A DNA stretch of 64,000 bases from assembly GCA_964352335.1 (NCBI GenBank), contig CAYGRO010000007.1:361-64360 (forward strand), in the 5' to 3' direction. The DNA is from an uncultured Gammaproteobacteria bacterium (GTDB lineage: Bacteria > Patescibacteriota > Patescibacteriia > VMEV01 > CAYQCH01). A program made the translations under genes and the position numbers. Shown here piece after piece: positions 1 through 20,055 of the stretch (its first letter is position 1; the number at the start of each line of letters is the position of its first letter). The notes below the pieces were generated by a model. The model had not been told where the DNA came from, did no database searches, and saw nothing but the letters and a program-made list of their open reading frames with translations.

Positions 1-44
1 TAACTCGGTTCGCGGTGAACTGGGTTGACACTGGTCAATCACCC

Positions 45-79
45 GGACCTCGTTCACAGTGAACGAGGTCCTTTTTATT
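45..79 (+). terminator. Rho-independent terminator-like hairpin (13-bp perfect stem, 1-nt loop) + T5
   Basis: ggacctcgttcac-a-gtgaacgaggtcc followed by tttttatt; sits only 3 nt upstream of the SD of the next ORF. Confidence 0.6.
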
Positions 80-89
80 CCTGGAGGGA

Positions 90-536
90 ATGATGACTGA
101 GAAGAACAAGGGGAGCGGCGGCCTCAGTCGTCGTAATCTCCTCAAGTTGGTGCGAGAGTCTGCTCTCGCTCTAGCTGCTGGCTACGTCCTGCAAGGATGT
201 GGTGGCAGTGGCGGAAGTAGTGGTGGTGGAGCTCCGGCTCCGACCGGAAGTCCTACCCCCACACAGAGGATCACGATTGGAGTGGCCACGCGCAAGCAGG
301 GCACCCCGAATACGGATCCCTCGTGGTCGTCGGTTTACGGCAGCCTGTATACCACGGTTGTCGTGAACTCGGTTTCGTTGGGAGATCCTCCCAAGGGTAA
401 GGACCTCAACTTCGGGGCCTTCCAAGCGATCGAGGCTGACAAGGCTGAGGTCAACATCGGCACCACGATCACTTGGCTTGAGGTGGCGCAAGCACCCGGC
501 TCGGTTGTCCTCGTCGAATCCTTTACGGCCGCTTAG
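90..536 (+). CDS. Putative Tat-exported lipoprotein (148 aa) encoded in ~60% GC DNA
   Basis: SD GGAGGG 1 nt before ATG; twin-arginine motif SRRNLLK; lipobox-like LQGC followed by Gly/Ser linker; GC3-rich codons unlike rest of window. Confidence 0.5.
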   Translation: MMTEKNKGSGGLSRRNLLKLVRESALALAAGYVLQGCGGSGGSSGGGAPAPTGSPTPTQRITIGVATRKQGTPNTDPSWSSVYGSLYTTVVVNSVSLGDPPKGKDLNFGAFQAIEADKAEVNIGTTITWLEVAQAPGSVVLVESFTAA

Positions 537-544
537 GAGGTCTC

Positions 545-1084
545 ATGGAAATCACTTTGCAGTTCACCTGTTCCCATGTCACCGACGAGTGTCGTGAGGG
601 GCTCAACCAAGACTCCAATAAGCCGACGCTGGCTTCGTGTCTGGCTTGTATGCCAGTCATGTTCAATAGCTCGTCGGTGCTCGATCTCTTGATCAGCATG
701 GAGCTCTTGCCGGTTACTCCCGGAAGTACGCTCGGACAAGCGCTGTTCGGCGCGACGGTCTTGGGCAAGGACAAGTTCGGACTTGGTCTCGAAGCCTTTC
801 GGACCACTACGGGCATGCTCGGCATGATGGTCAACGGCAAGATCGGAGGGTCGCTGTACATCGTTCGGCGAACGATGGACGGCTTGCTCTTGCTCTTTCC
901 TGGGTCATCGGATCGTTGGGCCGATCGTGTCGTCCACCCCGACGACATCTTCTGGTTCTTCGGTGACACCATCACTGACGAGCGAGTCCCCAAGGGCGAG
1001 AAGACCATTCACGAGCTCCTCCGAGAGGGGATCGGGCACGATGGTTTCGTCCTCAACGTGCGTTCGCTGGCTCGTGTCGGCTAA
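545..1084 (+). CDS. Hypothetical protein (179 aa), high-GC island gene 2
   Basis: SD AGGAGG 5 nt upstream of ATG; + frame has higher GC3 (~80%) than overlapping antisense ORFs; no recognisable family. Confidence 0.4.
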   Translation: MEITLQFTCSHVTDECREGLNQDSNKPTLASCLACMPVMFNSSSVLDLLISMELLPVTPGSTLGQALFGATVLGKDKFGLGLEAFRTTTGMLGMMVNGKIGGSLYIVRRTMDGLLLLFPGSSDRWADRVVHPDDIFWFFGDTITDERVPKGEKTIHELLREGIGHDGFVLNVRSLARVG

Positions 1085-1099
1085 CCACAGCATGGCGCA

Positions 1100-1129
1100 G
1101 GGAGGCACTTCTACCAAGAAGTGCCTCCC
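1100..1129 (+). other. Perfect 12-bp stem / 6-nt loop hairpin at right boundary of high-GC island 1
   Basis: gggaggcacttc-taccaa-gaagtgcctccc; GC content drops to host level immediately downstream; no T-tract. Confidence 0.5.
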
Positions 1130-1201
1130 GCCCAAACATTTACCACTTGATGTAACTAGATCAAAAGTTTGATCCACTAAATCAATTGTTAAATTACCAA
1201 T

Positions 1202-3202
1202 ATGCGTTTTCGTCAACTCGTCTCATCATTTCTCATTGTTGCTTTAGCGGTAACAGGGATGACTATTCCTACATCTGCTGCAGTCGACAGTGCAACAATC
1301 AATTATCTACAAAGCCAAGAGCAAAATAATGCTTGGGTAGTAATGGCACTTAGAGCAGGGGGGCAAACACCTTCTGCCAATCGTCTTTCTACTACACTGA
1401 ATTCTATTACAGATATAGAAAGAACTATTTTAGCTGTTACAGCTGCTAATCAAGACCCAACAAATTTTAATGGAGTGAACTTAATCCAAAAGCTCGATCT
1501 AGAAAGAAAAAATCGACAAATTGGAAGTACTACTCTTATTAATGACGATATCTTTGGTATCTTAGCCTATTATTCTGCAGGGATTCCTTTTACAGATTTA
1601 CGTATTGCGGAAAGTAAAGAATATATTCTCAATCATCAAAATAGTGATGGGGGATGGTCTCATTCTACTTCTTCACCATCAGACTCAAACGATACTGCGA
1701 TGGCAATTAGTGCGTTAATACGAGCTGGTGTTTCTCAAAATGATCCAGCGATTACAAAAGCAGTAAACTATATTAAAACAACACAAAATGATGATGGTGG
1801 TTTTGGTATTTCTCAAAATGCAGACTCAGATAGTGCTTCTACAGCATGGATTATTTCTGCTTTACAAACTGCAGGAAAAACACCGGCTTCTTTTACGAAA
1901 AATAATAAAACACCTTTCATGTTTTTAAATACTGTAAAGCATTCAGATGCTTCGTATAAATGGAAGGCAAATGAAGGTCGTGGAAATGCAACCATGACAG
2001 CCTATGTTGCTATCGCTTTAGCTGGTACCGGATATCCTGTTGCCACTCGAGCTGGTTCAACAACAACTTCAACAAATACAAGTACAAATGTTTCTCGAGT
2101 CGTTAATGATACAACAACAACGAATACACAACGAGTAGCAAATGATACAACGACAACAAATACCGTTCGAGTCGGTTCTCCAACACGAGGAGGGACTCAA
2201 GTAAACTTTAGAATCGAAGGAAGTCAAAATCAAATTTGTGAAGGAACTGCAACAGCGGCAAATCCATTAGATTTAGTAAAAAATGCGGCTTCACAATGTG
2301 GATATAGCTACTTTATCGATCAAACAAGTTTTGGTTCTTATTTGCAACGAGTAAATGCTGACCAAGCATCTGGTTCAAATGGATGGCTGTATTTAGTTAA
2401 CTGGACTCAACCTTCTGTTGCTGCCGATCAATATCAATTAAAAAATGGTGATTATGTCACTTGGTATTTCGGAGAATTCGATTGGAAACCATTAAGAGCA
2501 CAATTAATAAATGCATCTACAGCCCAACAACAAGGAAATGCCATTATTGAAGTTCAGCAATATCAAAGTGGTGCATGGCGTGCCTTTTCTGGAGCAACAG
2601 TGTATTTAACAGGTAGAACTGCTACAACCAATTCTTCTGGTCAAGCAAGTTTTTCTCTTCCAACCGGTTCTTATCAATTTTATGCAGATAGAGCGAATTA
2701 TATTCGTTCAGCGAAAGAAACTTTTAGTGTGAATACCGCTTCAACAAATACAACAACGACAAATACGAATTCAACGAATACAAATTCTTCAACAAGAATT
2801 AGTCGATCAGTTCCACTAGAATCAACAATTATTACAGACCGAGTGTATACGCAGAATACAAATACAACAACGTATAATCCAAATCCACCACAAATGTCAT
2901 TTTCTTTGAATCTAAGTGGTTCTACGACTTCCTTAGGTTTTGGTACACTAAGAGAAGGTCAAACAGCTACACAAAGTGTGACGGTAACAAATACAGGTAC
3001 GACAAGCTTATTAATGACGGCAACAGTAACAGGAGATGCCTTATATACAAATAACTTACGCTTAGATAATCAGTCTTGGGGAAGTTTTTCACGACGTATT
3101 AGTGTAAATAGCGCTTCTCGTATTGATGTATCATTAACTGTTCCTGTAAATTATTCAGACGGATACAAAAGAGGTGACCTCATATTTTGGGCGACTCAGT
3201 AA
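1202..3202 (+). CDS. Secreted multidomain protein: alpha/alpha-toroid (prenyltransferase/terpene-cyclase-like QxxDGGW repeats) + DUF4430-like domain + CarboxypepD_reg-like + beta-sandwich; Thr/Asn-rich linkers
   Basis: N-terminal signal peptide; repeated motifs NSDGGWSHS, QNDDGGFG; segment SNGWLYLVNWTQPSVAADQYQLKNGDYVTWYF homologous to C-terminus of the next gene; TNT-rich low complexity. Confidence 0.6.
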   Translation: MRFRQLVSSFLIVALAVTGMTIPTSAAVDSATINYLQSQEQNNAWVVMALRAGGQTPSANRLSTTLNSITDIERTILAVTAANQDPTNFNGVNLIQKLDLERKNRQIGSTTLINDDIFGILAYYSAGIPFTDLRIAESKEYILNHQNSDGGWSHSTSSPSDSNDTAMAISALIRAGVSQNDPAITKAVNYIKTTQNDDGGFGISQNADSDSASTAWIISALQTAGKTPASFTKNNKTPFMFLNTVKHSDASYKWKANEGRGNATMTAYVAIALAGTGYPVATRAGSTTTSTNTSTNVSRVVNDTTTTNTQRVANDTTTTNTVRVGSPTRGGTQVNFRIEGSQNQICEGTATAANPLDLVKNAASQCGYSYFIDQTSFGSYLQRVNADQASGSNGWLYLVNWTQPSVAADQYQLKNGDYVTWYFGEFDWKPLRAQLINASTAQQQGNAIIEVQQYQSGAWRAFSGATVYLTGRTATTNSSGQASFSLPTGSYQFYADRANYIRSAKETFSVNTASTNTTTTNTNSTNTNSSTRISRSVPLESTIITDRVYTQNTNTTTYNPNPPQMSFSLNLSGSTTSLGFGTLREGQTATQSVTVTNTGTTSLLMTATVTGDALYTNNLRLDNQSWGSFSRRISVNSASRIDVSLTVPVNYSDGYKRGDLIFWATQ

Positions 3203-3207
3203 GAGTT

Positions 3208-3317
3208 TACCTCCCCCTAACCCCCTCCTTATCAAGGAGGGGGAAGTATAATATCATGATGGACCTACGCATTATATTCCTTCCCCTCCTGTCTCAGGAG
3301 GGGATTGAGGGGAGGTA
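3208..3317. repeat. 110-bp MITE/REP-like palindromic element, copy A
   Basis: tacctccccctaaccccctcc...ggaggggattgaggggaggta terminal inverted repeats; second copy at 54757-54866 with ~85-90% identical ends and divergent centre. Confidence 0.6.
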
Positions 3318-3340
3318 TCTAATCGATAAATCAAATACCT

Positions 3341-4348
3341 ATGCTCAAACGACTTAGCTTTATCATCGCTTTCTTATCGCTCAGTTTGATTCCATTATCA
3401 ATGGTGTCTGCTGCAGGAATTGGAATTTCTCCTCAATCATTAGAGATTACACAATCTCCTGGTTCACAAACGGAAACAATGATCTCGGTTCACAATACAG
3501 GAGAAACAACAGCTCTTTACCAAATTTATGCGGACCAATACGAACGATTAATTTCTATCGATGGTGAAGAAATTCGTTTAGCTCCGGGTGAGGGAAGAGC
3601 GATCCCTATTACTGTGGGTTCATTTCCACCGGGAGAATTTACAACAGCAATCTCAATTGTTGCGACGGAAGTGTCGGTTGAAGATTTGCCTAAAACAGGT
3701 GTAAAACTTCCAGTCACAATCAATTCAGTATCACTTATTGAGCAGGGGCAAGCTAATATGATTCGTCAATATAGTTTATATTTCATTGCTTTTGCACTGA
3801 TTCTCTTATTACTAGCAATGTGGTTTCATTCTCGTCGATCAAAAATGCATAAACTGCTTGATACCGCTCAAGAAACATTGGCTAGTCATTCTCTCGAGCA
3901 AACAGCTGACCATTATAGAAAAAAACATCCACTTATTTTTATCAGTCTCTTAGCTTTACTTATTGCTGGTGGATTACTGATCTGGTCATTTATTGCCTCA
4001 GATCAACAGCCTGTAACGGTAGAGATTCAGCAAGGGGTCGAACAATATTCTGTAACAATTCAACATCCAAGTGGTGCAAAAATCTATACAGTACAATCAG
4101 ATCGAGCTATCTCTGCCTTTTCTGCTTTAGAACAAGTACGTGATCAATATGGAATCAGTTTAGCCTATGATCCACCAATTGAATTCGGAATCTTGGTCAC
4201 AGAAATTGATGGTTATACAAATGGGGAAGATGGGCAGTACTGGGTTTTTGAAGTAAATGGAAAACAAGTGCCATCAGCGGCAGATCGGACTCAATTACAA
4301 CCAAATGACCAATTAGTATGGAAATTTGTTATCCCGAGTGCAGAATAA
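3341..4348 (+). CDS. Membrane-anchored protein with C-terminal DUF4430-like domain (335 aa)
   Basis: Signal peptide, central TM helix, C-terminal GQYWVFEVNGKQVPSAADRTQLQPNDQLVWKF matching the corresponding segment of the upstream gene. Confidence 0.55.
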   Translation: MLKRLSFIIAFLSLSLIPLSMVSAAGIGISPQSLEITQSPGSQTETMISVHNTGETTALYQIYADQYERLISIDGEEIRLAPGEGRAIPITVGSFPPGEFTTAISIVATEVSVEDLPKTGVKLPVTINSVSLIEQGQANMIRQYSLYFIAFALILLLLAMWFHSRRSKMHKLLDTAQETLASHSLEQTADHYRKKHPLIFISLLALLIAGGLLIWSFIASDQQPVTVEIQQGVEQYSVTIQHPSGAKIYTVQSDRAISAFSALEQVRDQYGISLAYDPPIEFGILVTEIDGYTNGEDGQYWVFEVNGKQVPSAADRTQLQPNDQLVWKFVIPSAE

Positions 4349-4356
4349 ATTAAAAT

Positions 4357-4944
4357 GTGTATAATAAACTCTTCATTAATCAAAAAACTATGAATCAAAG
4401 AAAAGCTCTTGTAGCTCTCTCAGTCCTAGCGGTCATTTTTGCCGTTACTTTCCGTCTAGTCGACCACCCAGCTAATTTTGCTCCTATTGGTGCAATAGCG
4501 TTAATTTCTGCTTATTACCTAACTGCTCGAGGTTCTTGGGCTATTCCTTTAGGTGCAATGCTTTTGAGCGATGCCATCATCGGTTTTTATAGTCTTCCTG
4601 TGATGTTTGCTGTTTATGCAAGTTATTTAGCGATGTGGGGATTAGGACGATGGGCAAAAAATGCAGAAACAAAAACAGCCTTAGTTCCAGCAGTTCTATT
4701 TGGATCAATTACACATTTTGTGCTTACAAACTTTGCTGTATGGGCTTTTACAGGTATGTACGCAAAAACCCTTTCTGGTTTAGCGCTGTCTTATACAATG
4801 GCCATTCCATTTTTTAAATGGACATTAGCTGGAGATCTCTTTTTTGCTGGACTTTTTATTGCTATGATTGAAGGAGCGAGACAAATGGCAAAATCTATTG
4901 TATCAAAAGATGTAGTAGAAAATGTCATCTATCACCAATCTTAG
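4357..4944 (+). CDS. Small polytopic membrane protein, ECF-transporter S-component-like (195 aa)
   Basis: ~5-6 predicted TM helices, size and hydrophobicity profile of ECF S components; start may be the internal ATG at 4390. Confidence 0.4.
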   Translation: MYNKLFINQKTMNQRKALVALSVLAVIFAVTFRLVDHPANFAPIGAIALISAYYLTARGSWAIPLGAMLLSDAIIGFYSLPVMFAVYASYLAMWGLGRWAKNAETKTALVPAVLFGSITHFVLTNFAVWAFTGMYAKTLSGLALSYTMAIPFFKWTLAGDLFFAGLFIAMIEGARQMAKSIVSKDVVENVIYHQS

Positions 4945-4967
4945 TTTATCTTTAACCAAAAAGAGCT

Positions 4968-5090: not shown

Positions 5091-5096
5091 GTGAAT

Positions 5097-5926: not shown

Positions 5927-6054
5927 CTATTTTTTCACAGCTTTTTTATCAATTATTCAGTCACATTGGTAAAAAGACCAAAGAAAAATAGACTTACTTA
6001 TCGATCAATAGCAAAACAAGAATAAATAGATAAACGGTGCGATGCGGAGTATCT

Positions 6055-9000
6055 ATGCCAATAAAGAAAAAAACACCAAAGAAAAAAGTGGTTAAAAAAA
6101 CTCGAACAAAAACTCGAGCCACAAAAACCAAAACAACAACTCGTAAAAAACGAGCTTCTTCTGTTAGTAAAAAAACAGTGAAGGCAAAACCAGCAAAAAA
6201 GAAAACGACTAAGGTCGCTAAAAAAACGACTGTTAAATCAAAGAAGAAAAAAGTACTAGCTAAGCCTAAGAAAAAAGTAGTTAAAAAGTCTGTGCCCGCT
6301 GTGGCTGTAGAGCGAGCAATAAGTCCATCTACAAAAGCAGGTCAATTGCATAACCGACAAATACAGACAAAACAACATGTATATTTAGCTCCTACGAAAA
6401 CAAATACAGCTTTTTCTGTCTCTGGTTTTTCTTTTCAAAAAGCCTTATCTCAAGTACGAGATAAAGTACATACTACAGATGAGCCAATTGCGATAACTCC
6501 AATAGAAGCTCCAATAAAACTAGAGTTAGATGATCAGCCAGAACAGCCTCATTTTTCTCCCTATGTTTTAGATTTAAAATCAAGAAAAACAGTTGTTACA
6601 ACTCATAAACTTTCTCTCAATTCTGCTAAACCAGAACAAGTACAATTAGGTCTTTTTGAAGAAGAGGTTAAAACACCTGTTCAATTTATTGCTCAATCTT
6701 GGAATAATTTTCTTGCTTCACTCAAACCAAGAAGAAGAATTAATCTTATCCCTCGTGAACAAAAGCAAGGAGTCAGTTTATCTCAGAAGATCGCCAGAAA
6801 GCATAAACGATTTCAATTTCATTTAGAAGAATTTGGAGAGTTATTATCTCGTCCGTATCAACTTTGGAGAGATGCTAAACGACAAAAAACTTTTGGATTG
6901 CCTCGAGAAACGAGTAGGCAGAAACAAGTTCCACTAATTTCAAATAGAACAAGGTCTGGTGAAGCCATTCCTGTTTCTCGTATAGATAAAATTCATCAAA
7001 AAGCAAAAAATGTTGCCGCTTCTGCACAGATTTCTGTGACAAGTTTATCTGATGTATTAAAACGTCAACCCAAACCAAAGAAAACTTTTTCTTTAGAGCA
7101 TTTATCTTTGCAAAAAGCTTTTATGCCTTTTGCTGTTTTGGCTTTTGTCATTTTATTGCCTTTTGCTGGGGCGTCACTGTATGAAGGGCTTTCTCAAACA
7201 CAAGGTGAAGTATTAGGAGCAACAAATCAGGCTGTTTCGAAATTGCAATCAGCTACCAACTATGCAAAATCTTTTCAGTTTTTACAAGCGAGTAAAGATT
7301 TTCAACAGGCTTCACAAACATTTTTAGCGGCATCTGCATTAATTGAAAACCAACAAGGGCTTTCTACCAAGGCTTTATCTGTATTACCAGTTGTTGGAGA
7401 AAAAGTGAGAGCAGGGAAAGATTTATTAACGATTGGAAATGAATTATCAGAAGCAGCAACCTTATTTTCACAAGGTATTGCTGTATTGGCAGATGAAAAA
7501 CATTTTCTTGTGGATCAGCCGATGTCATATAAATTGGAATACCTTTTTGTTCGATTACAAGAAGCACAACCACATGTGCAATCAGCTGTTTCGATGTTAA
7601 ATGAAATCGATCCTGCAAATATCCCAGAAGATATTCAAGGTGATATTGAAATGCTTAAACAATCATTACCAGTTCTTTCAGAAAAATTACATCAGTTTAC
7701 GGAAATGGATCAATCTGTTCTTAGCTTTTTAGGGCATCAAAACTTAGAGCGATATTTAGTTGTATTTCAAAATAATACAGAATTACGAGCTACAGGTGGA
7801 TTTTTTGGAAGTCTTGCGTTAGTTGATATTGACCGAGCAGAAATAAAAAATATTGAAATCCCTGGTGGTGGTCCCTATGATTTTCAAGGAAGTCTTTACA
7901 AAAACTATGAATCACCAAGAGCAATGCAATTGATTAATCCTCGATGGGAGTTACAAGATACAAATTGGTTCTTTGATTGGCCAACATCTGCTCAAAAAAT
8001 TACACATGTCTATGAACAATCTGGTGGTCCAACTGTTGATGGTGTGATTGCTTTAAATACAAATGTACTACAAACATTGTTAGAATTTACTGGTCCCGTC
8101 CAATTAGCATCGTATGAAAAAGAATTCTCTGCCGAAAATTTTAGAGAAATTTTGCAACAACATGTTGAATTTGAATACGATGAAGAATTAAACCAGCCAA
8201 AGAAAATTATTGCAGACTTAGCTCCTGTTTTATTGGAACGAGTTAAGTTATTAGATCCTGTTGAATACTTAGAGTTAGCAGCACATTTAGGTGAATTATT
8301 TCAAACGAGAGAACTCTTTATTTATCATACAAATGAAGACGTGCAAAAAGAATTTTCTAAGTTAGGATGGTCAGGGGAAGTTGTACAAACAGAAAGCGAT
8401 TACTTAGCCATTGTACATACAAATTTAGCTGGTGGAAAAACAGATGGTGTTATCAAAGATTCTTATGATCTTACAACACATTTTTCTGAAAACAATACTA
8501 TTCAGCATACATTAACAATTGCACGTACACATACGGGTCAAAAAGGAATTCCATTAATTGGAGTACGAAATGTAGATTACTTAAGAGTTTATGTACCAAA
8601 AGGAAGTAAACTTATCTCCGCAACTGGTTTTGAAAAACCACCAACAGACTTATTTGAATCTCCTGGAGAAAATTGGATTGTTGACCAAGATTTATTAGCA
8701 AGCCAAGGTACATACACAGTAGATTCAACGACAGGAGTAGAAATCTATGAAGAATCTGGAAAAACAGTCTTTGCAGATTGGGTGCAAACAGATCCCGGAG
8801 AAAGACAAGAAATTCAAATTACTTATGAAGTGCCAGCGAGTGTTATTTCTGAATTTATTTTACCAACTCGTGAGTCTTCTTGGTTAGATTGGGTTACTGG
8901 TAAAACAGTTAATACAGAAGAAGAAGTAAAAGCCTATCAACTGTATTGGCAAAAACAATCAGGTGCATGGGACCCAGAAATGCATTTGAGTATTGATTAT

Positions 9001-12426: not shown

Positions 12427-12428
12427 TC

Positions 12429-13169
12429 ATGATGCTTGTTACATGTACACCATGTACCATATCTCATGATAAGATTATGCAACAAGAAATTTGGGAAAAA
12501 GAATATGAACAAGGACAATTAGTTTCCTTGGATGATAAACCACAGTCATATATGAATCGGTATTTTCGTCGTCTCAAATTTTCTTTAGATAAAGATTTTG
12601 AGGATTGGTCTGTTTTAGATCTTGGTTCTGGGACAGGACGAAATAGCAATTTCTTAGCAGAAAAAGGTTCAGAAGTAACAGGAATAGAGATTGCAAAAAA
12701 TGCATTAGAATTGGCAAAGAAACGAGCTATTGAAATGGGGGTAAAAGTAAATTATCTTCATCAAAGTATTGGTGAGCCATACCCATTCAAAGACAATAGT
12801 TTTGATCTTGTTATGGATATTACATCTTCAAATTCACTCAATAATGCAGAGCGAGAAGTGTATTTAAAAGAAGTCCATCGAGTATTAAAACCTGGTGGGG
12901 CATTTTGGGTACGAACATTATCGTTAGATAACGATAAAAACGCTAAAAACTTATTGAAACTCTTTCCTGGTTCAGAAGAGCATACCTATATTATGCCTGG
13001 TACTGGTATTGAAGAACATGTCTTTACCAGACAAGAGTTTTATAAATTATATCAACAGTATTTCGATATAAAAAAGTTTGAAAAGCCAGTAACGTATACT
13101 CCATTTAAAGGACAACCGTATAAACGTCATTTTTTCTTCGCATGGATGAAGAAAAAGGAAGTGGAATAA
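12429..13169 (+). CDS. Class I SAM-dependent methyltransferase
   Basis: Motif I VLDLGSGTGRNS; 246 aa; start may be internal ATG (~12477). Confidence 0.7.
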   Translation: MMLVTCTPCTISHDKIMQQEIWEKEYEQGQLVSLDDKPQSYMNRYFRRLKFSLDKDFEDWSVLDLGSGTGRNSNFLAEKGSEVTGIEIAKNALELAKKRAIEMGVKVNYLHQSIGEPYPFKDNSFDLVMDITSSNSLNNAEREVYLKEVHRVLKPGGAFWVRTLSLDNDKNAKNLLKLFPGSEEHTYIMPGTGIEEHVFTRQEFYKLYQQYFDIKKFEKPVTYTPFKGQPYKRHFFFAWMKKKEVE

Positions 13170-13230
13170 AATACAATTTGGCAAAAAGAAAAGCGGCTTA
13201 AGGGCCGTTTTTTGCTTTAAAAAAGGGGGA

Positions 13231-13262
13231 GCCCGCAACAGTGTGTCGACTGTGTTGCGGGC
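13231..13262 (-). terminator. Hairpin terminator serving the high-GC island-2 gene (T6 follows on - strand)
   Basis: gcccgcaaca…tgttgcgggc 10-bp arms; on - strand followed by cccccttttttaaagc. Confidence 0.55.
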
Positions 13263-13286
13263 TCTATCCATCCTCCAAATTCCACG

Positions 13287-14051
13287 TTAGGCAAGCTCGG
13301 CTTCCCGTTGTCGTGGGGTGTCTTCCTCCGGCTCTGAGTTGTTCTCTTCTCGTGCTTTCGGTGGTTCGTTTCGCTTTCGCTCGACGATTTGTTTGAGCGG
13401 TTCACGACCTGAGTCGTTTTCCGTCTCTTCTTCTTCCTCACCTTGAAGTGACCATGAGGCAAGAATCTTGTCGTCATCCATGGCTTCGTCTTCTGCTCGC
13501 TCGATTTCAGCAACTGCTTCGTCGAGGTCAGTGAGAAGCTCATTGAGCTTAACGACGGCCTCTTGGTTGTCGACAGCCATCACGTCACTCGTAGAGATGG
13601 TGCCAAGATCTTTCACAGCAGATTCTAGCGCCATCCGGATCTCCAGAATCTCGTTGATGTCTTGGAGTTGGATGACACGAAGCGCGATGCGTTTGATCTG
13701 GTCGAGGATAAGTGAGAACTTCTTCTCACGTCCCTTGAGCGCCTTCTCTGGGTCGAGGTCGAATGCTTCGAACTCAGGATGGCGACCGCTCTTCTGTTTG
13801 GTGCGTTCAAAGATCTCTTTGAGCTTGTTGAGCAAGGTGCTTAGCTTTTCCTTGCGGATCAGCGTGTCTTGCTCTCGGGCCCCGATGAGACCGAGCTTGA
13901 TACCCAGTCTGGTTCGTTCGAGCCGAGTTCTGATAGCGCCTCGGTACCAGTAGCACGTGCAGGCAATGAATGCCACAGTGCTCATTGCGATAACCTCGGC
14001 ATTAGCCGCGATCCAGTAATCCCATGAGAGGGCAAAAGTCATGTAAGGCAT
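13287..14051 (-). CDS. N-terminally membrane-anchored coiled-coil protein with acidic C-terminal tail (254 aa), high-GC island gene
   Basis: SD AAGGAG 7 nt upstream of ATG at 14051; TM WIAANAEVIAMSTVAFIACTCYWY; charged heptad-like region; EEEEETEND… tail; GC3-rich. Confidence 0.55.
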   Translation of the reverse strand: MPYMTFALSWDYWIAANAEVIAMSTVAFIACTCYWYRGAIRTRLERTRLGIKLGLIGAREQDTLIRKEKLSTLLNKLKEIFERTKQKSGRHPEFEAFDLDPEKALKGREKKFSLILDQIKRIALRVIQLQDINEILEIRMALESAVKDLGTISTSDVMAVDNQEAVVKLNELLTDLDEAVAEIERAEDEAMDDDKILASWSLQGEEEEETENDSGREPLKQIVERKRNEPPKAREENNSEPEEDTPRQREAELA

Positions 14052-14111
14052 GGTAGTCTCCTTTACCCCTCTGGGGTGATTCTTCGTTACACGCGACAAC
14101 TTACTGTTCGG

Positions 14112-14140
14112 ATCATAACGAAAACTACGACCAAGGTCAA
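14112..14140 (-). promoter_or_regulatory. Sigma70-like promoter TTGACC-17-TATGAT for island-2 gene
   Basis: Read on - strand: ttgacc ttggtcgtagttttcgt tatgat, ~50 nt upstream of SD. Confidence 0.45.
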
Positions 14141-14252
14141 TTGGAAAGCCACCCTAAAACCCTTGTTTTTAATGTGGATAACTTAAAAAACACCTAAATT
14201 GTTGAGTATGCTAATCTCAGTAGTATGAGAAAAATGTTATACTAGAAGTCCT

Positions 14253-15530
14253 ATGGATCAAGCACCAGAAATACCTATTTTAACCGTTACCCAATTTAAC
14301 GATACCGTCAATCAAGTATTGGCGGATATGCGTGTTTGGGTAAAAGGAGAAATTTCTGGCTATAAAGTAAGTCAAAATAAATGGGTGACCTTCGACCTTA
14401 AAGATGAAGGGAGTAAGGTCAATGTATTTATGACCATTTATCAAGTTGACCAAGTACTAGAAGATGGAATGGAAGTAAAAGTATTTGGTAATCCACGTAT
14501 TTATGTTCCTTATGGAAAATATAGTTTTACTGCTCAACGAGTAGAACCTGTTGGAGAAGGGGCACAAAGAAGAGCTTTTGAATTGACCAAACAAAAATTG
14601 GAAACAGAGGGTCTTTTTGATCCAGCTTATAAAAAAGAGTTACCAAGATTTCCGCAAACAATCGGTATTGTCACATCTGCAGAAGCTGCTGCGTATACAG
14701 ATTTTTTGCGTATTTTAAATAATCGGTGGGGAGGCGTTACTACAATTTTGCGTCCATCCCTTGTACAAGGGAATAATGCACCAGGTGAGTTAGTAGATGC
14801 AATTGAATGGTTTAATAAATTTCATCCAGTAGATGTAATGGTGATCACTCGTGGAGGAGGGTCATTAGAAGATTTACAAGCATTTAATTCTGAACAGGTC
14901 TGTCGTGCAATTTTCGCATCTAGAATCCCTATTATTTGTGGTATTGGTCATGAACGAGATACATCGCTGGCAGAACTTGTTGCAGATAGACGTGCTTCTA
15001 CTCCATCGAATGCTGCTGAAATTGCTGTTCCAGATAAAGAAGAAATACAATGGCAATTACAAAGAATGGAAAAAACAATGTCAGATACGATCTATACTAA
15101 ATTAGCTGATTTACGTTCAAACTTGGAAGACATGCTCTCTCGTATGGAAAGTGTATTACGAGATTATGCAAAAACGTTTCAAGAATTGGATCATCGTCTA
15201 AAACTAAGTTTTCAAACGTATCGATTACAATTACAAGCTTTTCAACAAGATCTTGGTTCATTGGCCAAACGAATCCAGCTAGCATCAAATTCTGTTTTTA
15301 ATTCATACCATGATCAACTAGATCAATTGGGGAAATTACTCACTTCCTATAGTCCCAAACTAGTGCTTAAACGAGGATATAGTATCGCTCGTTTAGGGAA
15401 TGGAAAGGTTGCAACTTCTGTAAAACAAGTTAAAACTGGAGAAGTTATTCAAACTGAATTTGCAGATGGCTCTATTTCTTCCATTGTTGAATCAAAAGGG
15501 AAGTTGGTAGAGAATGGCCGATTATTGTAA
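14253..15530 (+). CDS. xseA: Exodeoxyribonuclease VII large subunit
   Basis: 425 aa; OB-fold N-terminus, GGGSLEDL motif, adjacent xseB. Confidence 0.85.
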   Translation: MDQAPEIPILTVTQFNDTVNQVLADMRVWVKGEISGYKVSQNKWVTFDLKDEGSKVNVFMTIYQVDQVLEDGMEVKVFGNPRIYVPYGKYSFTAQRVEPVGEGAQRRAFELTKQKLETEGLFDPAYKKELPRFPQTIGIVTSAEAAAYTDFLRILNNRWGGVTTILRPSLVQGNNAPGELVDAIEWFNKFHPVDVMVITRGGGSLEDLQAFNSEQVCRAIFASRIPIICGIGHERDTSLAELVADRRASTPSNAAEIAVPDKEEIQWQLQRMEKTMSDTIYTKLADLRSNLEDMLSRMESVLRDYAKTFQELDHRLKLSFQTYRLQLQAFQQDLGSLAKRIQLASNSVFNSYHDQLDQLGKLLTSYSPKLVLKRGYSIARLGNGKVATSVKQVKTGEVIQTEFADGSISSIVESKGKLVENGRLL

Positions 15531-15537
15531 TTACTTG

Positions 15538-15596
15538 GCTAGTAGGAGGGTAGGAGAGTAGCAACTACACTCCTACCTTCCTACTCTCCTACTAGC
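15538..15596 (+). other. Very stable ~24-bp-stem hairpin between xseA and xseB (no T-tract)
   Basis: gctagtaggagggtaggagagtag-caactacactc-…ctactctcctactagc; 2 GU, 1 mismatch. Confidence 0.7.
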
Positions 15597-15660
15597 TAAA
15601 AATACGATGCCAAAAAAACAACTAAGGAATAACAACATTAACTATTAAACACCACAATAA

Positions 15661-15882
15661 GTGGAAAATATGGCTAAAGCAAAAACATTTAATTTTGGAG
15701 AATCATTTAACGAACTGAATCAAATTGTTGATCAATTAGAATCTGGTGATATTGGTTTAGATCAAGCATTGAAGCAATATGAAGATGGTTTAAAACTTGT
15801 ATCTGAATGTAAAAAACAGTTAACGCAAGTCGAGAATAAAGTAAAAGTAATCCGAGATAAATACGTTGAAGAAGAGGTTTAA
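15661..15882 (+). CDS. xseB: Exodeoxyribonuclease VII small subunit
   Basis: 73 aa; FEESFNELNQIVDQLESGDIGLDQALKQYEDGLKL typical XseB. Confidence 0.8.
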   Translation: MENMAKAKTFNFGESFNELNQIVDQLESGDIGLDQALKQYEDGLKLVSECKKQLTQVENKVKVIRDKYVEEEV

Positions 15883-15903
15883 AGACTCGCTTTATACATT
15901 TTC

Positions 15904-16980
15904 ATGTTTACATTAATTTCTCTCATTGGTTTTACCCTAACACTAGTCCTCACTTGGGGGGTACGCCGATTTGCGCTTTCTCAAAATATTGTTGATGACC
16001 CCAAAGGGGTAGAGAGAAAGATTCATTCAAAGCCCAAACCACTTTTAGGTGGTGTTGCAATTTATCTAGGGCTTTGTTTTACAATTTTTCTATCGTATCT
16101 ATTAGAATTGCTTCCACAAGGCTCTATTTCTGGTAAGCAATTAATCGGTTTACTTTTCGGTGGTGCATGGCTTATTTTAGGAGGTGTTTTAGACGACAAA
16201 TATAATTTCTCACCTAAAAAACAAATCCTCTTTCCTTTGCTTGCTGTATTAACGGTCATTTCTAGTGGAATAGGAATTGAATCTTTTACCAATCCTTTTG
16301 GTGGACAATTCTTTTTAGATCAATTTGAATTTACATTATTTTCTTTAAAAGGCATTCCATATTCTGTCACATTATTAGCAGATGTCTTCACCTTTCTTTG
16401 GCTATTTGGTTTTATTTATGCCACGAAATTTTTTGATGGACTTGACGGACTCGTTTCTGGTATTACCGTTATTGGTGCTTTTACTGTTTTTGCAACGAGT
16501 TTATTACCTAAAGTAAATCAACCAGAAACCGCATTACTTGCTCTTATTGTGGCGAGTTGTTTTGCAGGATTTCTCTTCTTCAATTTTAATCCAGCCAGCA
16601 TTTTTTTAGGAGAGGCGGGGAGTACATTAGCGGGGTTTCTTATTGGAAGTTTGGCAATTATTGCAGAAAGTAAAATTACAACAACATTAGTTGTTATGTC
16701 ATTGCCTTTACTCGATTTACTTTGGACAGTAGTAAGAAGAACTTTTTTAGAAAAAACATCTCCAACAAAAGCAGATCGAAAACATATACACCATCGACTG
16801 CTCGATTCAGGTTTATCTCATCGTTCGGCTGTTTTTCTTTTGTATCTTTGGGCGATAGGTTTAGGTATTGTTGCATGGTTATATCAAAGTACTGAGTTAA
16901 TCGAATTGTTGTTTTTATCATTTGTTTTTCTCATTAGTTTTGCTATCTATCTTATTTATAGAATAAAAAAATATGCATAA
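15904..16980 (+). CDS. Glycosyltransferase family 4 phospho-sugar transferase (MraY/WecA family)
   Basis: 358 aa polytopic; motifs GGVLDDKYNFSPKKQ and KFFDGLDGLVSG. Confidence 0.8.
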   Translation: MFTLISLIGFTLTLVLTWGVRRFALSQNIVDDPKGVERKIHSKPKPLLGGVAIYLGLCFTIFLSYLLELLPQGSISGKQLIGLLFGGAWLILGGVLDDKYNFSPKKQILFPLLAVLTVISSGIGIESFTNPFGGQFFLDQFEFTLFSLKGIPYSVTLLADVFTFLWLFGFIYATKFFDGLDGLVSGITVIGAFTVFATSLLPKVNQPETALLALIVASCFAGFLFFNFNPASIFLGEAGSTLAGFLIGSLAIIAESKITTTLVVMSLPLLDLLWTVVRRTFLEKTSPTKADRKHIHHRLLDSGLSHRSAVFLLYLWAIGLGIVAWLYQSTELIELLFLSFVFLISFAIYLIYRIKKYA

Positions 16981-17425
16981 AGGCTTTTTTCTTTTATTTT
17001 TTGTTCTATTAGGTTCAGGTTGCCAAATACAACCAATAGCAGATTCAGTAGACAATGAAATAACTTCTGTACAAATTGGGAATGCAACTTATTCTGTTGA
17101 AGTAAAAGATACGCCAATAGAAAGAAACCAGGGGCTTTCTGGAAGAGAAAAGCTTGGAGAAAATGAAGGCATGCTCTTTTTATTTGATCAACCCCAAGAA
17201 TTAAGCTTTTGGATGAAAGATATGCAATTTCCATTAGATTTCATTTGGATAAATGACCAAGTCGTTATTGGGTTAGATGAACATATTCCTCATCCTGCAA
17301 TAAATAACAACGAAATTGCCCGTTTAAGCTCTCCAGAAGCGACTGATACAGTTTTAGAAGTAAATGCTGGGCACATAGAGCTTTATGGTCTTAAAATAGG
17401 GGATTTGGTTAAATATGAGCGGTAG
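16973..17425 (+). CDS. DUF192-family lipoprotein
   Basis: Signal + lipobox LGSGC; FPLDFIWIND… motif of DUF192; overlaps upstream gene by 8 nt. Confidence 0.55.
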   Translation: MHKGFFLLFFVLLGSGCQIQPIADSVDNEITSVQIGNATYSVEVKDTPIERNQGLSGREKLGENEGMLFLFDQPQELSFWMKDMQFPLDFIWINDQVVIGLDEHIPHPAINNNEIARLSSPEATDTVLEVNAGHIELYGLKIGDLVKYER

Positions 17426-17426
17426 A

Positions 17427-17455
17427 TTGACAAATTAGGATTGTTTTCGTATAAT
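17427..17455 (+). promoter_or_regulatory. Consensus sigma70 promoter TTGACA-17-TATAAT upstream of rplU
   Basis: ttgaca aattaggattgttttcg tataat, exact consensus hexamers and spacing. Confidence 0.7.
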
Positions 17456-17461
17456 CTGCTT

Positions 17462-17534
17462 ACACAAATTAAGGGCCTTTCGTGGGGCTTTTTAAGTTCC
17501 TCAGTAAGAGGACGCCACAGAAAGCCAAAAACTT
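17462..17534 (+). promoter_or_regulatory. 5' leader of rplU (possible L21-leader-type autoregulatory RNA)
   Basis: ~75-nt structured untranslated leader between promoter and rplU ATG; family assignment unverified. Confidence 0.3.
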
Positions 17535-17852
17535 ATGAGTAAAATCGCTGTTATCAAAACAGGGGGGAAGCAATATAAGGTCAAAGAAAAGGATCTCATC
17601 AAGGTTGAGAAGCTAGAAATTGAAGAAGGTCAAACAGTGACTTTTGACGAAGTGCTTCTCGTAGCTGATGAAAACGGATCTGACGTTCAAATTGGTACTC
17701 CTACACTTTCTACAAAAGTAACTGGAAAAGTTCTTGAACAAGGACGAGCGAAAAAAGTGAATGTGGTTAAATACAAAGCCAAAACGCGTTACCACAAAAA
17801 ATACGGACATCGTCAACCATTTACAAAAATAGAGATTGAAAAAATCGCGTAA
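17535..17852 (+). CDS. rplU: 50S ribosomal protein L21
   Basis: 105 aa; MSKIAVIKTGGKQYKV… canonical L21 N-terminus. Confidence 0.9.
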   Translation: MSKIAVIKTGGKQYKVKEKDLIKVEKLEIEEGQTVTFDEVLLVADENGSDVQIGTPTLSTKVTGKVLEQGRAKKVNVVKYKAKTRYHKKYGHRQPFTKIEIEKIA

Positions 17853-17860
17853 AAAATTAA

Positions 17861-17920
17861 ATCCCTTTCTTGTCTAATAATCAATACTAATTGATTTCTA
17901 AACAAGGAAGGGATTTTTTC
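17861..17920 (+). terminator. Rho-independent terminator after rplU
   Basis: atccctttcttg…caaggaagggat 12-bp stem (1 GU) followed by tttttt. Confidence 0.65.
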
Positions 17921-17948
17921 GTCAACAGTCAACTATAGTTGGAGTGCT

Positions 17949-18104
17949 ATGGAAGTAGATTGGCTTGATCGGGCAAGCCAGATGGTGCTTGGTTTGTCAG
18001 CGCTATTAGTCATTGTCATCGTTGTGGCAATGATGTGGCTTTTCATTGGAGAACCGCTCTACTACCGCTGGAAGGAGGCATGCGATAAGCGGAAGTCGGC
18101 ATAG
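17949..18104 (+). CDS. Small single-TM protein (51 aa) in high-GC island 3
   Basis: SD GGAG 5 nt upstream; MEVDWLDRASQMVLGLSALLVIVIVVAMMWLFIGEPLYYRWKEACDKRKSA; not in ORF track (<60 aa). Confidence 0.35.
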   Translation: MEVDWLDRASQMVLGLSALLVIVIVVAMMWLFIGEPLYYRWKEACDKRKSA

Positions 18105-18131
18105 GTGGGAAGAGGCAGCAAGAGGGCAAGA

Positions 18132-18185
18132 CCTCGTTTTGTGAAAGCGTCAACACGCAATTATGAAACGAGGCTCTTCTTTTTT
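18132..18185 (+). terminator. Hairpin (8-bp stem, 26-nt loop) + T-rich run after island-3 ORF
   Basis: cctcgttt…aaacgagg then ctcttctttttt. Confidence 0.4.
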
Positions 18186-18963
18186 ACGAGGGGTTTTGTA
18201 ATGCTCCTACAACTTTTCTCACAAAATTTCGCGGGGAAATACGTGGTAATTGCGTAATGATTTTATTTACAATACCAGTGGTGACAATAACCTTTCTTTT
18301 TTCAATACCTTTTACAGCAAGTTGAGCAACTTTTTGAGATGTCATTACATTGCTATAGCGTAAGACTTTTAATGATTCCATTTCTGCTTCTTTTTGAAAT
18401 CCACTAATAGTTGGTCCCGGACAAATAGTCGTAATAGAGATACCAGTATCTTTTAGTTCTTCAGATAAAGCTTCAGAGAATGAAAGAACAAAAGCTTTTG
18501 TTGCATAGTAAACTGCCATATAAGGACCAGGTAAAAATGCAGCGACAGAAGCAATATTTACAATTTGCCCAGAAGTTCTTTTTTTCATTTGAGGTAGTAC
18601 CAATTTTGTTAATTCCACAAGAGTTGTGGTATTCAATTGAATCATATCTACTTCTCGATGAGAATCTGTTTCTTCAAATTTTCCAGCGAGCCCAAATCCA
18701 GCATTATTAATTAAAAGGTCAACAATAATACCTCTTGATTGCATTTGTTCAAATGCAACTTTTGCTGAACCAGGTTTTGCTAAATCAATAGGGAAGTAAC
18801 CAACGCGAATACCGTAATCTTCTTCTAAATTTTCTTTCACTCGTGTCAGTTTTCTTTCATCTCGAGAAAGTAAGAATAGGTCATATCCTTTTTGGGCATA
18901 AAGCTCACTTAGTTCGCGTCCAATGCCTCCCGAAGCACCCGTTATTACAACAGTTTTTTTCAT
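18184..18963 (-). CDS. Short-chain dehydrogenase/reductase (SDR)
   Basis: TGASGGIGRE Rossmann motif, NNAG, YxxxK catalytic motif (YYATK). Confidence 0.85.
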   Translation of the reverse strand: MKKTVVITGASGGIGRELSELYAQKGYDLFLLSRDERKLTRVKENLEEDYGIRVGYFPIDLAKPGSAKVAFEQMQSRGIIVDLLINNAGFGLAGKFEETDSHREVDMIQLNTTTLVELTKLVLPQMKKRTSGQIVNIASVAAFLPGPYMAVYYATKAFVLSFSEALSEELKDTGISITTICPGPTISGFQKEAEMESLKVLRYSNVMTSQKVAQLAVKGIEKRKVIVTTGIVNKIITQLPRISPRNFVRKVVGALQNPS

Positions 18964-19016
18964 AAAAGATTTGAGAATAAGGTCTTTATTTTATCAATTT
19001 GAGTCACTGTAATCAA

Positions 19017-19045
19017 TTGACAATGTCTATTTTCTTAGCTATAGT
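19017..19045 (+). promoter_or_regulatory. Consensus sigma70 promoter TTGACA-17-TATAGT for island-4 gene
   Basis: ttgaca atgtctattttcttagc tatagt; AT-rich host-like DNA directly abutting GC-rich ORF. Confidence 0.6.
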
Positions 19046-19069
19046 TTTATATCAACCAAGGAGGTTGCT

Positions 19070-19390
19070 ATGGCTGTTTTCTTGACGGCCGTAGTAGAAC
19101 TACCGGTCGGAACAAAGCGATATGCCGTCGACCTAACGGTTGACGTCGAAGAATTCGAGTCGGATTGCCCCTGTTATTGGTGCGACGGAATGGGGGCGCG
19201 CCTCGTTCTTATCAGCGCTTTACGCGTCTGGTCCACTCGCAAAAACAGGATTGTCTACCCCCAGCTACTTTATTGGATGGACGCAGTCTATGAAGCTGAG
19301 GAGCGACTTGGTGCTGGACGTCCGGTCTGCATCAACTGTTGGGACAGCGAGCTCTTGCCCTATGTGCGGGAGCGAGCATTGTTCAAATGA
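19070..19390 (+). CDS. Cys-rich small protein (106 aa), high-GC island 4; putative zinc-binding
   Basis: SD AAGGAGG 5 nt upstream; motifs DCPCYWCDG and CINCWD; no family recognised. Confidence 0.45.
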   Translation: MAVFLTAVVELPVGTKRYAVDLTVDVEEFESDCPCYWCDGMGARLVLISALRVWSTRKNRIVYPQLLYWMDAVYEAEERLGAGRPVCINCWDSELLPYVRERALFK

Positions 19391-19424
19391 GTCATCACTT
19401 GTCTGTGGTGGCTCTTTTCATTTT
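19391..19424 (+). terminator. Imperfect hairpin + T-tract after island-4 ORF
   Basis: gtcatcac…gtggtggc (2 GU) followed by tcttttcatttt. Confidence 0.4.
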
Positions 19425-20055
19425 AGGACAATAATATTTTCAAATAATTCTTAAGTGGGGTGAGTGCTAATTGTGACCATTCTTCAATAACACAATTATC
19501 ATCTGCGCAAAGCGCTTCCAATTTATCCAGTGAAATAAAAGAACCTTGAGCGATTTCTTTTGCTAAATTTAGTTCGGTTGAATTTGATTTGATTAAATAC
19601 AATAAACCAAAATGCACTTTTCCTACAGCATTTGTATCATCATTTATATAACCTAAAGGCGTAATTGTTGCTAAATCAAATAACCCCAATTCTTCTTCTA
19701 TTTCTCGTAATAAACTTGTATAAATAGGATTGTGATTCTCTGCATCTTCTTTATCTATATGTCCACCTATACCCCAAGACCATTTTCCATGTAAACGGTC
19801 TTCAGTTGCATGTTCTTTTTTTGACGCTCTTTGATAGGCAAAGAGCTCATTTTTTTCGTTAGTAATAAGGCAATAGGCAATTGGCTGTTGAAAGGTGTCA
19901 TCGTTTTCTGCTAATCCTCGTTTGAGATATTCAAAGTTATCAAGAATAAGGTTTTCATAATCATATTGGTCATGCGCAAGGAAACCTTGAAAATAGTTAT
20001 TCGCAAATAATGTTTCTCGTTTGATTACAAGAATTTCTTTTTCCATTTTATCCAT
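19423..20055 (-). CDS. NUDIX-family hydrolase
   Basis: Nudix box GGHIDKEDAENHNPIYTSLLREIEEELG. Confidence 0.65.
   Translation of the reverse strand: MDKMEKEILVIKRETLFANNYFQGFLAHDQYDYENLILDNFEYLKRGLAENDDTFQQPIAYCLITNEKNELFAYQRASKKEHATEDRLHGKWSWGIGGHIDKEDAENHNPIYTSLLREIEEELGLFDLATITPLGYINDDTNAVGKVHFGLLYLIKSNSTELNLAKEIAQGSFISLDKLEALCADDNCVIEEWSQLALTPLKNYLKILLS

Follow-up and report, generated by a model that had tools for sequence, protein, structure and literature searches.

The window analysed here, a stretch of 64,000 nucleotides from contig CAYGRO010000007.1 (assembly GCA_964352335.1) of an uncultured, ultra-small bacterium of the Candidate Phyla Radiation (CPR)/Patescibacteria, has an overall guanine plus cytosine (GC) content of 36.8% and harbors four GC-rich blocks, referred to below as islands 1 to 4, each of which is one small transcription unit whose ends coincide with the edges of the block. 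A 200-nt sliding profile and a scan of the whole window placed the blocks as follows:

Block 1: positions 1 to about 1200 (1-1201), GC 56.5%
Block 2: positions 13161-14151, GC 51%
Block 3: positions 17921-18221, GC 47.5%
Block 4: positions 19041-19441, GC 50%

Both analyses confirmed that the four sharply bounded blocks described in the initial annotation are real, since at their edges GC drops to 31-35% over the length of a single 200-nt window, and no GC gradient was visible in the sliding profile across the flanking genes. With the boundaries given in that annotation (1-1135, 13216-14170, 17949-18185 and 19070-19425), GC ranges from 48 to 58%. The value of about 60% GC given there stands for island 1 only, islands 2-4 being 50-54%. 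All other segments above 47% GC in the window are 191 nt or shorter, including its only tRNA gene (tRNA-Lys, 24795-24870), and no fifth long GC-rich block was found. The small GC peak at 23271-23421 is accounted for by the proline-rich tail of DnaB (SAPPPLPPATPPPPMAPINIPKF; dnaB 23249-24763).

The open reading frames (ORFs) of the islands have a GC content at third codon positions (GC3) of 0.59-0.73 versus 0.19-0.30 in 14 host ORFs, in agreement with the early description of a codon usage unlike that of the surrounding genes. Third-position C (C3) and G (G3) reach 0.35 and 0.29 in the islands versus 0.10 and 0.12 in the host, and all GC-ending codons rise together, while the amino-acid composition is only mildly shifted despite the change in codons. 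The enrichment extends to all codon positions, and the untranslated regions (UTRs) of the islands share the same GC-rich composition.

Some simple explanations for this composition were considered and rejected. Translational selection for particular codons was set aside since the rise involves every GC-ending codon and since GC richness does not extend to ribosomal protein L21; avoidance of nucleases was rejected because the island transcripts show no striking depletion of any 3-mer or 4-mer. Dual coding was also rejected: GC-rich sequence gives long ORFs in several frames, but only the GC-richest relatives have fully open antisense frames, those of the window and of L003 (related loci are designated by L numbers) being broken, and such frames are therefore regarded as a by-product of codon usage.

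Island 1 comprises two genes preceded by a regulatory leader and followed by a hairpin:

1-89, plus strand: expression platform, the 3' part of the leader of a cobalamin riboswitch, aligned with L003, L024 and L047, with the aptamer itself expected upstream of base 1
90-536, plus strand: gene 1A, 147/148 aa, start probably ATG at 93, predicted lipoprotein with a twin-arginine translocation (Tat) signal
545-1084, plus strand: gene 1B, 179 aa, clade-restricted, with the Shine-Dalgarno (SD) site AGGAGG at 535-540 and a GC3 of 0.73
1100-1129, plus strand: closing hairpin, 12 bp, GC-rich, no T-run, with GC at host level just after it

Within the platform, an invariant motif (GACACTGGTCAA) occupies 27-38 and is followed by a hairpin at 45-71 and a T-run at 72-76, with the SD site GGAGGG at 83-88, and across the four aligned lineages the arms of the hairpin differ in sequence yet still pair. 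Rfam gave no match in positions 1-1200 of the window, where only the conserved platform is visible, and identified AdoCbl/Cobalamin aptamers in L003 (337-497, 57.6 bits), L024 (5283-5432, 53.6 bits) and L047 (1303-1446, 35.8 bits), about 100 nt upstream of the start codon of the orthologous first gene. Moreover, a CobA/CobO/BtuR gene lies upstream of the locus in L024 and L047, and the genes located 3' of island 1 in the window (1202-4944) encode a protein with a Prenyltrans/SQHop toroid and DUF4430, a membrane protein with DUF4430 alone and a DUF6580 membrane protein. The combination of an alpha/alpha toroid with DUF4430 is an architecture that we take to be transcobalamin-like. Judged by this gene content, island 1 is the predicted first part of a B12-uptake locus controlled by a cobalamin riboswitch, and the context suggests that 1A and 1B may act in B12 capture at the cell surface. 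In the aptamer of its orthologues, the terminator-type platform, the transcobalamin-like and DUF6580 genes and the upstream CobA/BtuR genes of L024 and L047, island 1, alone among the islands, resembles B12 capture and uptake operons with surface lipoproteins; it differs from them in that the leading genes 1A and 1B fall outside the described families and stand compositionally apart from the rest of the locus.

Gene 1A (GC 59.5%, GC3 0.65) encodes an SRRNLLK motif, a hydrophobic stretch, an LQGC lipobox and a Gly/Ser/Pro linker. By inspection, the twin-arginine motif of the window corresponds to SRRLLMK in L003 and SRRSVLR in L024, and the lipobox to LAAGC and LFAGC, respectively, each followed by a Gly-rich linker; the protein had no match to Pfam TAT_signal. 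When compared with L003, its proportion of nonsynonymous differences (pN, 0.36) is lower than that of synonymous differences (pS, 0.68). The 1B protein conserves an N-terminal C-x-H...C-x-x-C motif and a core of the form GSLYIVR-T-DG-LLFPG...W...HPDD, and its family has 18 representatives in a HMMER profile search of 1.8 billion proteins, which found no homologues outside the clade. The three representatives whose context was looked up (P0008, P0009 and P0011) all follow a 1A-like gene and precede a Prenyltrans/DUF4430 gene, and a hairpin of different sequence occupies the equivalent position after island 1 in L003 and L024. Two very large, distant matches to the 1B profile are beta-propeller repeat proteins (Kelch/SGL/Tectonin), a weak hint on the nature of the 1B core. 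A metagenome scan with a narrow 1B alignment gave no confirmed match.

The remaining islands contain one gene each:

13229-13264, minus strand: terminator hairpin of island 2 (GAGCCCGCAACA...TGTTGCGGGCTC), whose U-run comes from the host A-run/GGGGG at 13216-13229, the left insertion junction
13287-14051, minus strand: island 2 gene, 254 aa, evolving very fast, with a membrane anchor at the N-terminus of its product followed by a long helical/coiled-coil stretch and an acidic tail
14052-14170, minus strand: 5' region of island 2, with SD site AAGGAG at 14058-14063, a -10 element TATGAT ending at 14112, a -35 element TTGACC starting at 14140 and a spacer of 17
17941-18104, plus strand: island 3, with SD site GGAG at 17941-17944 and a 51-aa single-pass membrane peptide, directly after the rplU (L21) terminator
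18120-18185, plus strand: long hairpin and T-run of island 3, overlapping the 3' end of a convergent SDR gene
19017-19064, plus strand: promoter (TTGACA-17-TATAGT, 19017-19045) and SD site (AAGGAGG, 19058-19064) of island 4
19070-19390, plus strand: island 4 gene, 106 aa, with four conserved Cys residues (C-P-C-x-W-C ... C-x-x-C)
19389-19424, plus strand: terminator of island 4, a 10-bp stem followed by TTTTCATTTT

The ORF of island 2 most likely starts at ATG 14051 rather than at TTG 14099. Positional counterparts of island 3, with 49-61 aa, the same architecture and little identity, were found in L005, L009 and L011, and its hairpin is probably a bidirectional terminator. The island 4 gene encodes a putative small zinc-binding protein; its orthologues (65-76% identity) are likewise flanked by the SDR and NUDIX genes, its ratio of nonsynonymous to synonymous substitution rates (dN/dS) is about 0.2 against L009, its promoter and SD site have equivalents in L005 and L011, and L011 additionally carries two distant paralogue-like genes (hhalign E 1.4e-4). 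In its exact form the island 4 protein is absent from a collection of 15 billion proteins in which 1A, 1B, the island 2 protein and Tgt are present, so the gene is apparently uncalled, or called with another start, in public annotation. Contig look-ups by exact sequence returned no record for islands 2 and 4, xseA and 1A.

These features bear out the description of each block as a small unit with its own SD site and hairpin, and of the products as proteins that look exported, membrane-bound or Cys-rich. The further statement that each unit ends in its own hairpin terminator holds for islands 2, 3 and 4, where the hairpin is followed by a T-run; the hairpin that ends island 1 has no T-run. Similarly, of the three host-like AT-rich sigma70 promoters that had been proposed, consensus elements are present at islands 2 and 4, although the promoter region of island 2 is moderately GC-rich; island 3 shows a -10-like TATAGT and no -35 element, and island 1 is preceded by the riboswitch platform instead of a promoter.

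The islands are also set apart by how their genes appear to be translated. All five SD sites quoted in the initial annotation (GGAGGG, AGGAGG, AAGGAG, GGAG and AAGGAGG) are present at the right spacing, giving five of five island genes versus one of 22 ordinary genes with even a 4-mer SD core (Fisher p = 7e-5); the chance of such a core in a random 13-nt island window is 0.125. A pattern scan of the whole window indicated that at most about 3 of some 60 ORFs have a possibly genuine SD site. The orthologues of the island genes likewise carry strong SD sites, and the ordinary genes of L005, L011 and L024 are similarly poor in them. The coupling of SD sites with elevated GC3 was also observed in these three loci, where it includes extra GC-elevated genes (15724-16131 and 16304-16648 in L005; 3089-3562 in L024), and it appears as a trend in other SD-poor Patescibacteria loci. 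Additionally, folding z-scores against dinucleotide shuffles averaged -2.9 for the coding sequences (CDS) of the islands and -1.2 for host CDS (p = 0.018 in the window only, 7e-4 with orthologues), and the folding energy per nucleotide of island CDS is about twice that of host CDS.

With regard to the ordinary genes (about 22 inspected, 1200-27700), several have a -10-like TATACT ending about 9 nt before the ATG, for example at the xseA start (14253), where this spacing is conserved in L005, L009 and L011. Pyrimidines often prevail among the three bases that precede the ATG (cct, ctt, tct). Several of the genes with a -10-like box, xseA among them, are probably leaderless or near-leaderless.

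Comparison with related loci revealed that the islands are old. L005 and L006 (41% GC; host proteins 56-86% identical) carry islands 2, 3 and 4 at identical sites and equally or more GC-rich, island 2 in L005 having 61% GC and a GC3 of 0.74 and island 4 having 57% GC, while L009 and L010 (36% GC; XseA 88% identical) carry islands 3 and 4 at the same sites, with an island 4 GC of 52-57% across L005 and L009. Overall, wherever a relative covers island 1, 3 or 4, the island is found at the same site (L003, L005-L010, L024, L047-L049). In L011 (50% GC), the three genes directly after rplU are a membrane-peptide gene and two island-4-like CxxC genes. In six lineages the genes 1A and 1B keep their order and are followed by the same Prenyltrans/DUF4430 gene, and the GC content of the pair always exceeds that of the neighbouring genes by 9-21 points:

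Window: island 1 GC 58.5%, neighbours 37.4%
L003: island 1 GC 54.2%, neighbours 37.7%
L024: island 1 GC 67.4%, neighbours 50.8%
L047: island 1 GC 66.8%, neighbours 55.0%
L048: island 1 GC 66.8%, neighbours 57.6%
L049: island 1 GC 65.5%, neighbours 52.5%

Synonymous differences are extensive in host and island genes alike (pS 0.55-0.85, that is, dS of about 1 (1-2) to saturation), and the distances between island proteins parallel those between host proteins. Since synonymous sites are saturated, the GC excess is no relic and must be actively maintained, and on this comparison of sites and divergence the four islands are not recent imports.

This result contradicts the recent acquisition implied by the initial annotation, in which the islands were seen as cargo from a high-GC donor such as Actinobacteria. 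The atypical composition and codon usage, the SD sites unlike those of host genes and the orphan proteins are what a recent transfer would produce; nevertheless, orthologues with saturated dS lie at the same sites (L003, L005-L010, L011, L024 and L047-L049), with the GC excess repeated in six genome backgrounds. Besides, no donor homologue was found: a word-indexed search of 5.8 billion proteins gave island relatives only in this clade, as did the profile search of 1.8 billion proteins for 1B. Signatures of mobility are also missing, as originally stated, no integrase, transposase, tRNA target or flanking repeat having been seen in positions 1-22000, and ordinary amelioration does not explain the blocks, as was likewise stated at the outset. 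We therefore regard a recent transfer as very improbable. Searches of the five island proteins against Pfam and PHROGs gave nothing significant, PDB sequence and Foldseek/PDB searches gave no informative match, and AlphaFold2 models had low confidence (predicted local distance difference test of 34 for 1B and 59 for island 4). Counts of GC-to-AT versus AT-to-GC changes polarised with an outgroup provided too few sites and were confounded by saturation.

It is equally hard to see the islands as an artefact, either a chimera or contamination, or as structured non-coding RNAs with accidental ORFs. GC-rich DNA does yield long ORFs in several frames, and the transcripts fold unusually well, as such RNAs would. 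However, two independent Logan assemblies (L001 and L002) contain the junction between island 1 and the host with 100% identity, and orthologous junctions of the other islands are present in at least eight further assemblies, which excludes an assembly chimera, in line with the earlier description. As for non-coding RNAs, the length and strand of the ORFs are kept in diverged lineages with pN lower than pS, the signal-peptide and Cys motifs are conserved, no Rfam match reached the gathering threshold, and the antisense ORFs are not conserved in low-GC lineages. Both versions of this explanation have, in our opinion, hardly any chance of being correct.

Our preferred interpretation, to which we assign a probability of about 50%, is that the blocks are native, long-resident, clade-restricted units whose GC excess is kept by selection on GC-rich, folded, SD-dependent mRNAs. 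A GC excess of 9-21 points in genomes of 37-58% GC, persisting over saturated divergence, requires a gene-specific force on composition. A two-state model applied to the GC3 values indicated that a GC-favouring bias of about 0.8-2 (in scaled units) is needed in every lineage, from which we infer a force that is weak but persistent. Selection at the mRNA level is favoured as the source of this force because the edges of the blocks are the ends of the units, the UTRs share the composition, the flanks show no GC gradient and the class coincides exactly with the SD-led genes. As this component is deduced from correlations, we put it forward tentatively and with less conviction than the interpretation as a whole. 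The products (a Tat lipoprotein and its partner, a membrane-anchored coiled-coil protein, a membrane peptide of about 50 aa and a four-Cys protein) are small, clade-restricted, fast-evolving proteins, and in this interpretation the DNA of their units is held 9-21 GC points above the local background in both coding sequence and UTR. According to the proposed mechanism, the resulting mRNAs, GC-rich and strongly folded, would make no use of the A/U-rich or leaderless initiation route and would depend on SD pairing with the anti-SD of the 16S rRNA, so that the SD-dependent messages might form a separately controllable and probably more stable set. A wider idea, which we consider possible but doubtful, is that two initiation regimes exist side by side in this clade, and possibly in SD-poor Patescibacteria more widely: the bulk of AT-rich leaderless or SD-less genes, and a small GC-rich, structured, SD-dependent regulon for fast-evolving envelope and secreted proteins. 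In that case composition itself would be the selected trait that marks or insulates the second class, with a GC3 excess of 0.2-0.45 held beyond synonymous turnover.

Several observations weigh against the interpretation of the islands as native units under mRNA-level selection. The mechanism rests on correlation, and the enrichment of whole CDS exceeds what is needed to enforce SD-dependent initiation. The difference in folding z-scores is moderate, and the host methyltransferase gene scores -4.2. No rRNA gene, and with it no 16S anti-SD, was present in the window or in the close-relative loci scanned with Rfam, and the anti-SD motif is lacking in some CPR lineages (PMC9297842). In L011 the GC excess of the island-3/4-like genes is small (2-7 points). 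Islands 2-4 were searched by word index only, so distant donors could be missed. Moreover, some units look mobile, as cassettes would be: a fifth GC-rich, SD-led unit occurs in L005 only, between dnaB and tRNA-Lys, and L009, the closest relative, lacks island 2 and has a nucleotide-clean empty site; L011 and L013 lack it too, with the upstream gene directly adjoining xseA. Such patterns would not be expected from purely vertical descent.

The empty site of L009 reads ...AAAAGAGGGGG / CTTATTTTTATGTGGATAAG, the slash marking the junction, with a left end of ...GAGGGGG; the corresponding junctions in the window are GGGGG / AGCCCGC on the left and AAAACC / CTTGTTTTTAATGTGGATAAC on the right. Where island 2 is present, its protein is only 31-32% identical to the L005 orthologue, compared with 76-78% for the flanking genes; the ORF retains its length, with 254 codons in the window and 261 in L005, and has a GC3 of 0.60 and 0.74, respectively. 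The window and L005 share a nearly identical island 2 promoter, 5' UTR and terminator hairpin (the terminator also in L006), and therefore the expression signals are more constrained than the product. Judging from these junctions, island units can be gained or lost as whole, discrete cassettes. Because island 2 and the L005-only unit are patchily distributed, an ancient horizontal origin of some units is possible, although their persistence would still not be explained by it.

The methyltransferase encoded beside island 2 (12429-13169, compared with 2-493 of L009) has 96% protein identity, versus 78-88% for the neighbours, and may reflect a recent recombination tract next to the presence/absence site. 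In L005, the genes between dnaB and tRNA-Lys (15681-16180 and 16304-16648) encode a 135-aa protein with CxxC and two transmembrane segments and a 114-aa protein; in the window, dnaB abuts the tRNA gene. L024 contains at 2384-3562 a GC-elevated (GC3 0.73), AGGAGG-led orphan gene of 157 aa and an AGGAG-led neighbour, which adjoin two AT-rich genes (36-38% GC) at 610-2218, and thus both directions of outlier occur in one genome.

An alternative built on these findings is that the islands are ancient moron-like cassettes from an unsampled, GC-richer pool (a phage, plasmid or element of the clade, or GC-richer clade members), inserted at terminator-rich intergenic sites and repeatedly refreshed or replaced. 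Each unit is self-contained, with promoter or leader, SD site, ORF and terminator; the empty site of L009 (...GAGGGGG / CTTATTTTTATGTGGATAAG) is clean; island 2 keeps near-identical ends across lineages around a coding sequence of 32% identity; and some clade members reach 55-58% GC, matching the GC of the islands. Against this, islands 1, 3 and 4 hold fixed positions with protein distances that parallel the host, and island 1 belongs to a riboswitch operon conserved in six lineages, where it lies 9-12 points above even the genomes of 55-58% GC. Viral-contig scans with islands 2, 4 and 1B and tblastn searches of phage and plasmid collections found no relatives, no recombinase was seen, and the islands share no end sequences, linking repeats or att-like sites. 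We consider this origin unlikely for the set as a whole.

A force acting on nucleotides could alternatively be GC-biased gene conversion, independent of function, at recombination hot spots of fast-evolving surface or secreted loci. This would account for the equal rise of G3 and C3 and for the enrichment of the non-coding parts, and it fits the fast evolution of the proteins; a bias of about 0.8-2 is in the range for weak biased conversion as well as for weak selection, and the 96% identical methyltransferase is a hint of local recombination. Conversion tracts anchored in the flanks should, however, raise the GC of the flanks, whereas the edges are abrupt at the unit ends and no flank gradient is present. 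In addition, the exclusive SD sites are left unexplained, and tblastn of the island proteins against the window returned self-matches only, leaving no paralogous donor cassettes. We rate gene conversion as improbable, below the cassette hypothesis.

GC-rich recombining cassettes do exist in AT-rich pathogens: the Borrelia vls cassettes and the MgPa repeats of Mycoplasma genitalium are surface-protein genes that are GC-richer than their reduced, AT-rich genomes and evolve rapidly. The islands resemble them in being markedly GC-richer genes of an AT-rich genome with rapid protein evolution, and differ in having no silent or paralogous copies in the window, no GC-skew signature, and single-copy genes with their own promoters. 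Phage morons are autonomous promoter-gene-terminator units of deviant composition inserted between essential genes. Islands 2 and 4 are similar to morons in that each has a sigma70-type promoter and a terminator of its own around an SD site and a single ORF, a different GC content and a location between unrelated genes; on the other hand, their context is one of housekeeping genes (tgt, methyltransferase, xseA, rplU, SDR and NUDIX), without prophage or phage relatives, and they are long conserved. Horizontally acquired islets and atypical ORFans likewise share with the islands a sharp contrast, orphan proteins, intergenic sites and occasional presence or absence, as seen for island 2 and for the unit restricted to L005. 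An atypical ORFan, however, is usually richer in AT, not in GC, than its own genome. Moreover, the contrast described here persists at orthologous sites over saturated divergence and keeps the same sign in genomes of 37-58% GC, and neither a donor nor an integrase, tRNA target or repeats came to light.

The closest likeness in translation is offered by the SD-blind Bacteroidia, such as Flavobacterium johnsoniae with its rpsU (bS21), in which ordinary genes have no SD and a handful have a strong, conserved one (PMC9976891, PMC13000453, PMC7797042). From this likeness follows a separate route of initiation, which the availability of the anti-SD might regulate. In the Bacteroidia type, the 16S anti-SD is kept but sequestered by bS21, bS18 and bS6. 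The organism here belongs to the CPR, and its SD-bearing genes are small secreted, membrane or Cys-rich orphans rather than rpsU; besides, their GC content is strongly elevated, a feature that PMC9976891, PMC13000453 and PMC7797042 do not describe for Bacteroidia.

Compositional outliers are routinely taken as recent horizontal gene transfer (HGT), and that reading is wrong here. The islands represent a conserved class of GC-elevated, SD-led genes in a CPR genome that is SD-poor and AT-rich, which is more unusual than a recent transfer. The near-exclusive SD sites of the islands point to a second, separately controlled class of mRNA in organisms whose translation apparatus is already unusual. 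If selection on these mRNAs is indeed responsible, the islands would offer a tangible example, open to testing, of selection acting on the GC content of entire transcripts and would call for caution in composition-based HGT calls in CPR genomes. The envelope and secreted orphans, including the two riboswitch-controlled partners of the B12-capture system, would then be candidates for the interaction of an episymbiont with its host.

The genes neighbouring the islands include tgt, a methyltransferase, xseA/xseB, an MraY-like glycosyltransferase, DUF192, rplU, SDR, NUDIX, DUF4153, recR, ybaB, dnaB and DUF4012. XseA is 59-67% identical to the nearest species-representative metagenome-assembled genomes (MAGs), followed by Saccharibacteria and Andersenbacteria at 40-45%, which places the host in a clade of the CPR/Patescibacteria. 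The nearest GTDB representative MAGs (L011, L012 and L013) bear the title 'uncultured Gammaproteobacteria bacterium', probably a mislabel, as gene content and next relatives are those of Patescibacteria. A metagenome scan with an XseA alignment gave mostly distant relatives (31-45%), of little use for orthologous sites. The start of the DUF4012 protein (6037-6400) is a Lys/Thr-rich low-complexity region of about 100 aa. Finally, an inverted repeat between xseA and xseB (15535-15599), with 27-nt arms that are 85% complementary and an 11-nt loop (TTGGCTAGTAGGAGGGTAGGAGAGTAG / CTACCTTCCTACTCTCCTACTAGCTAA), far exceeds the size of a normal terminator and holds SD-like GGAGG motifs.

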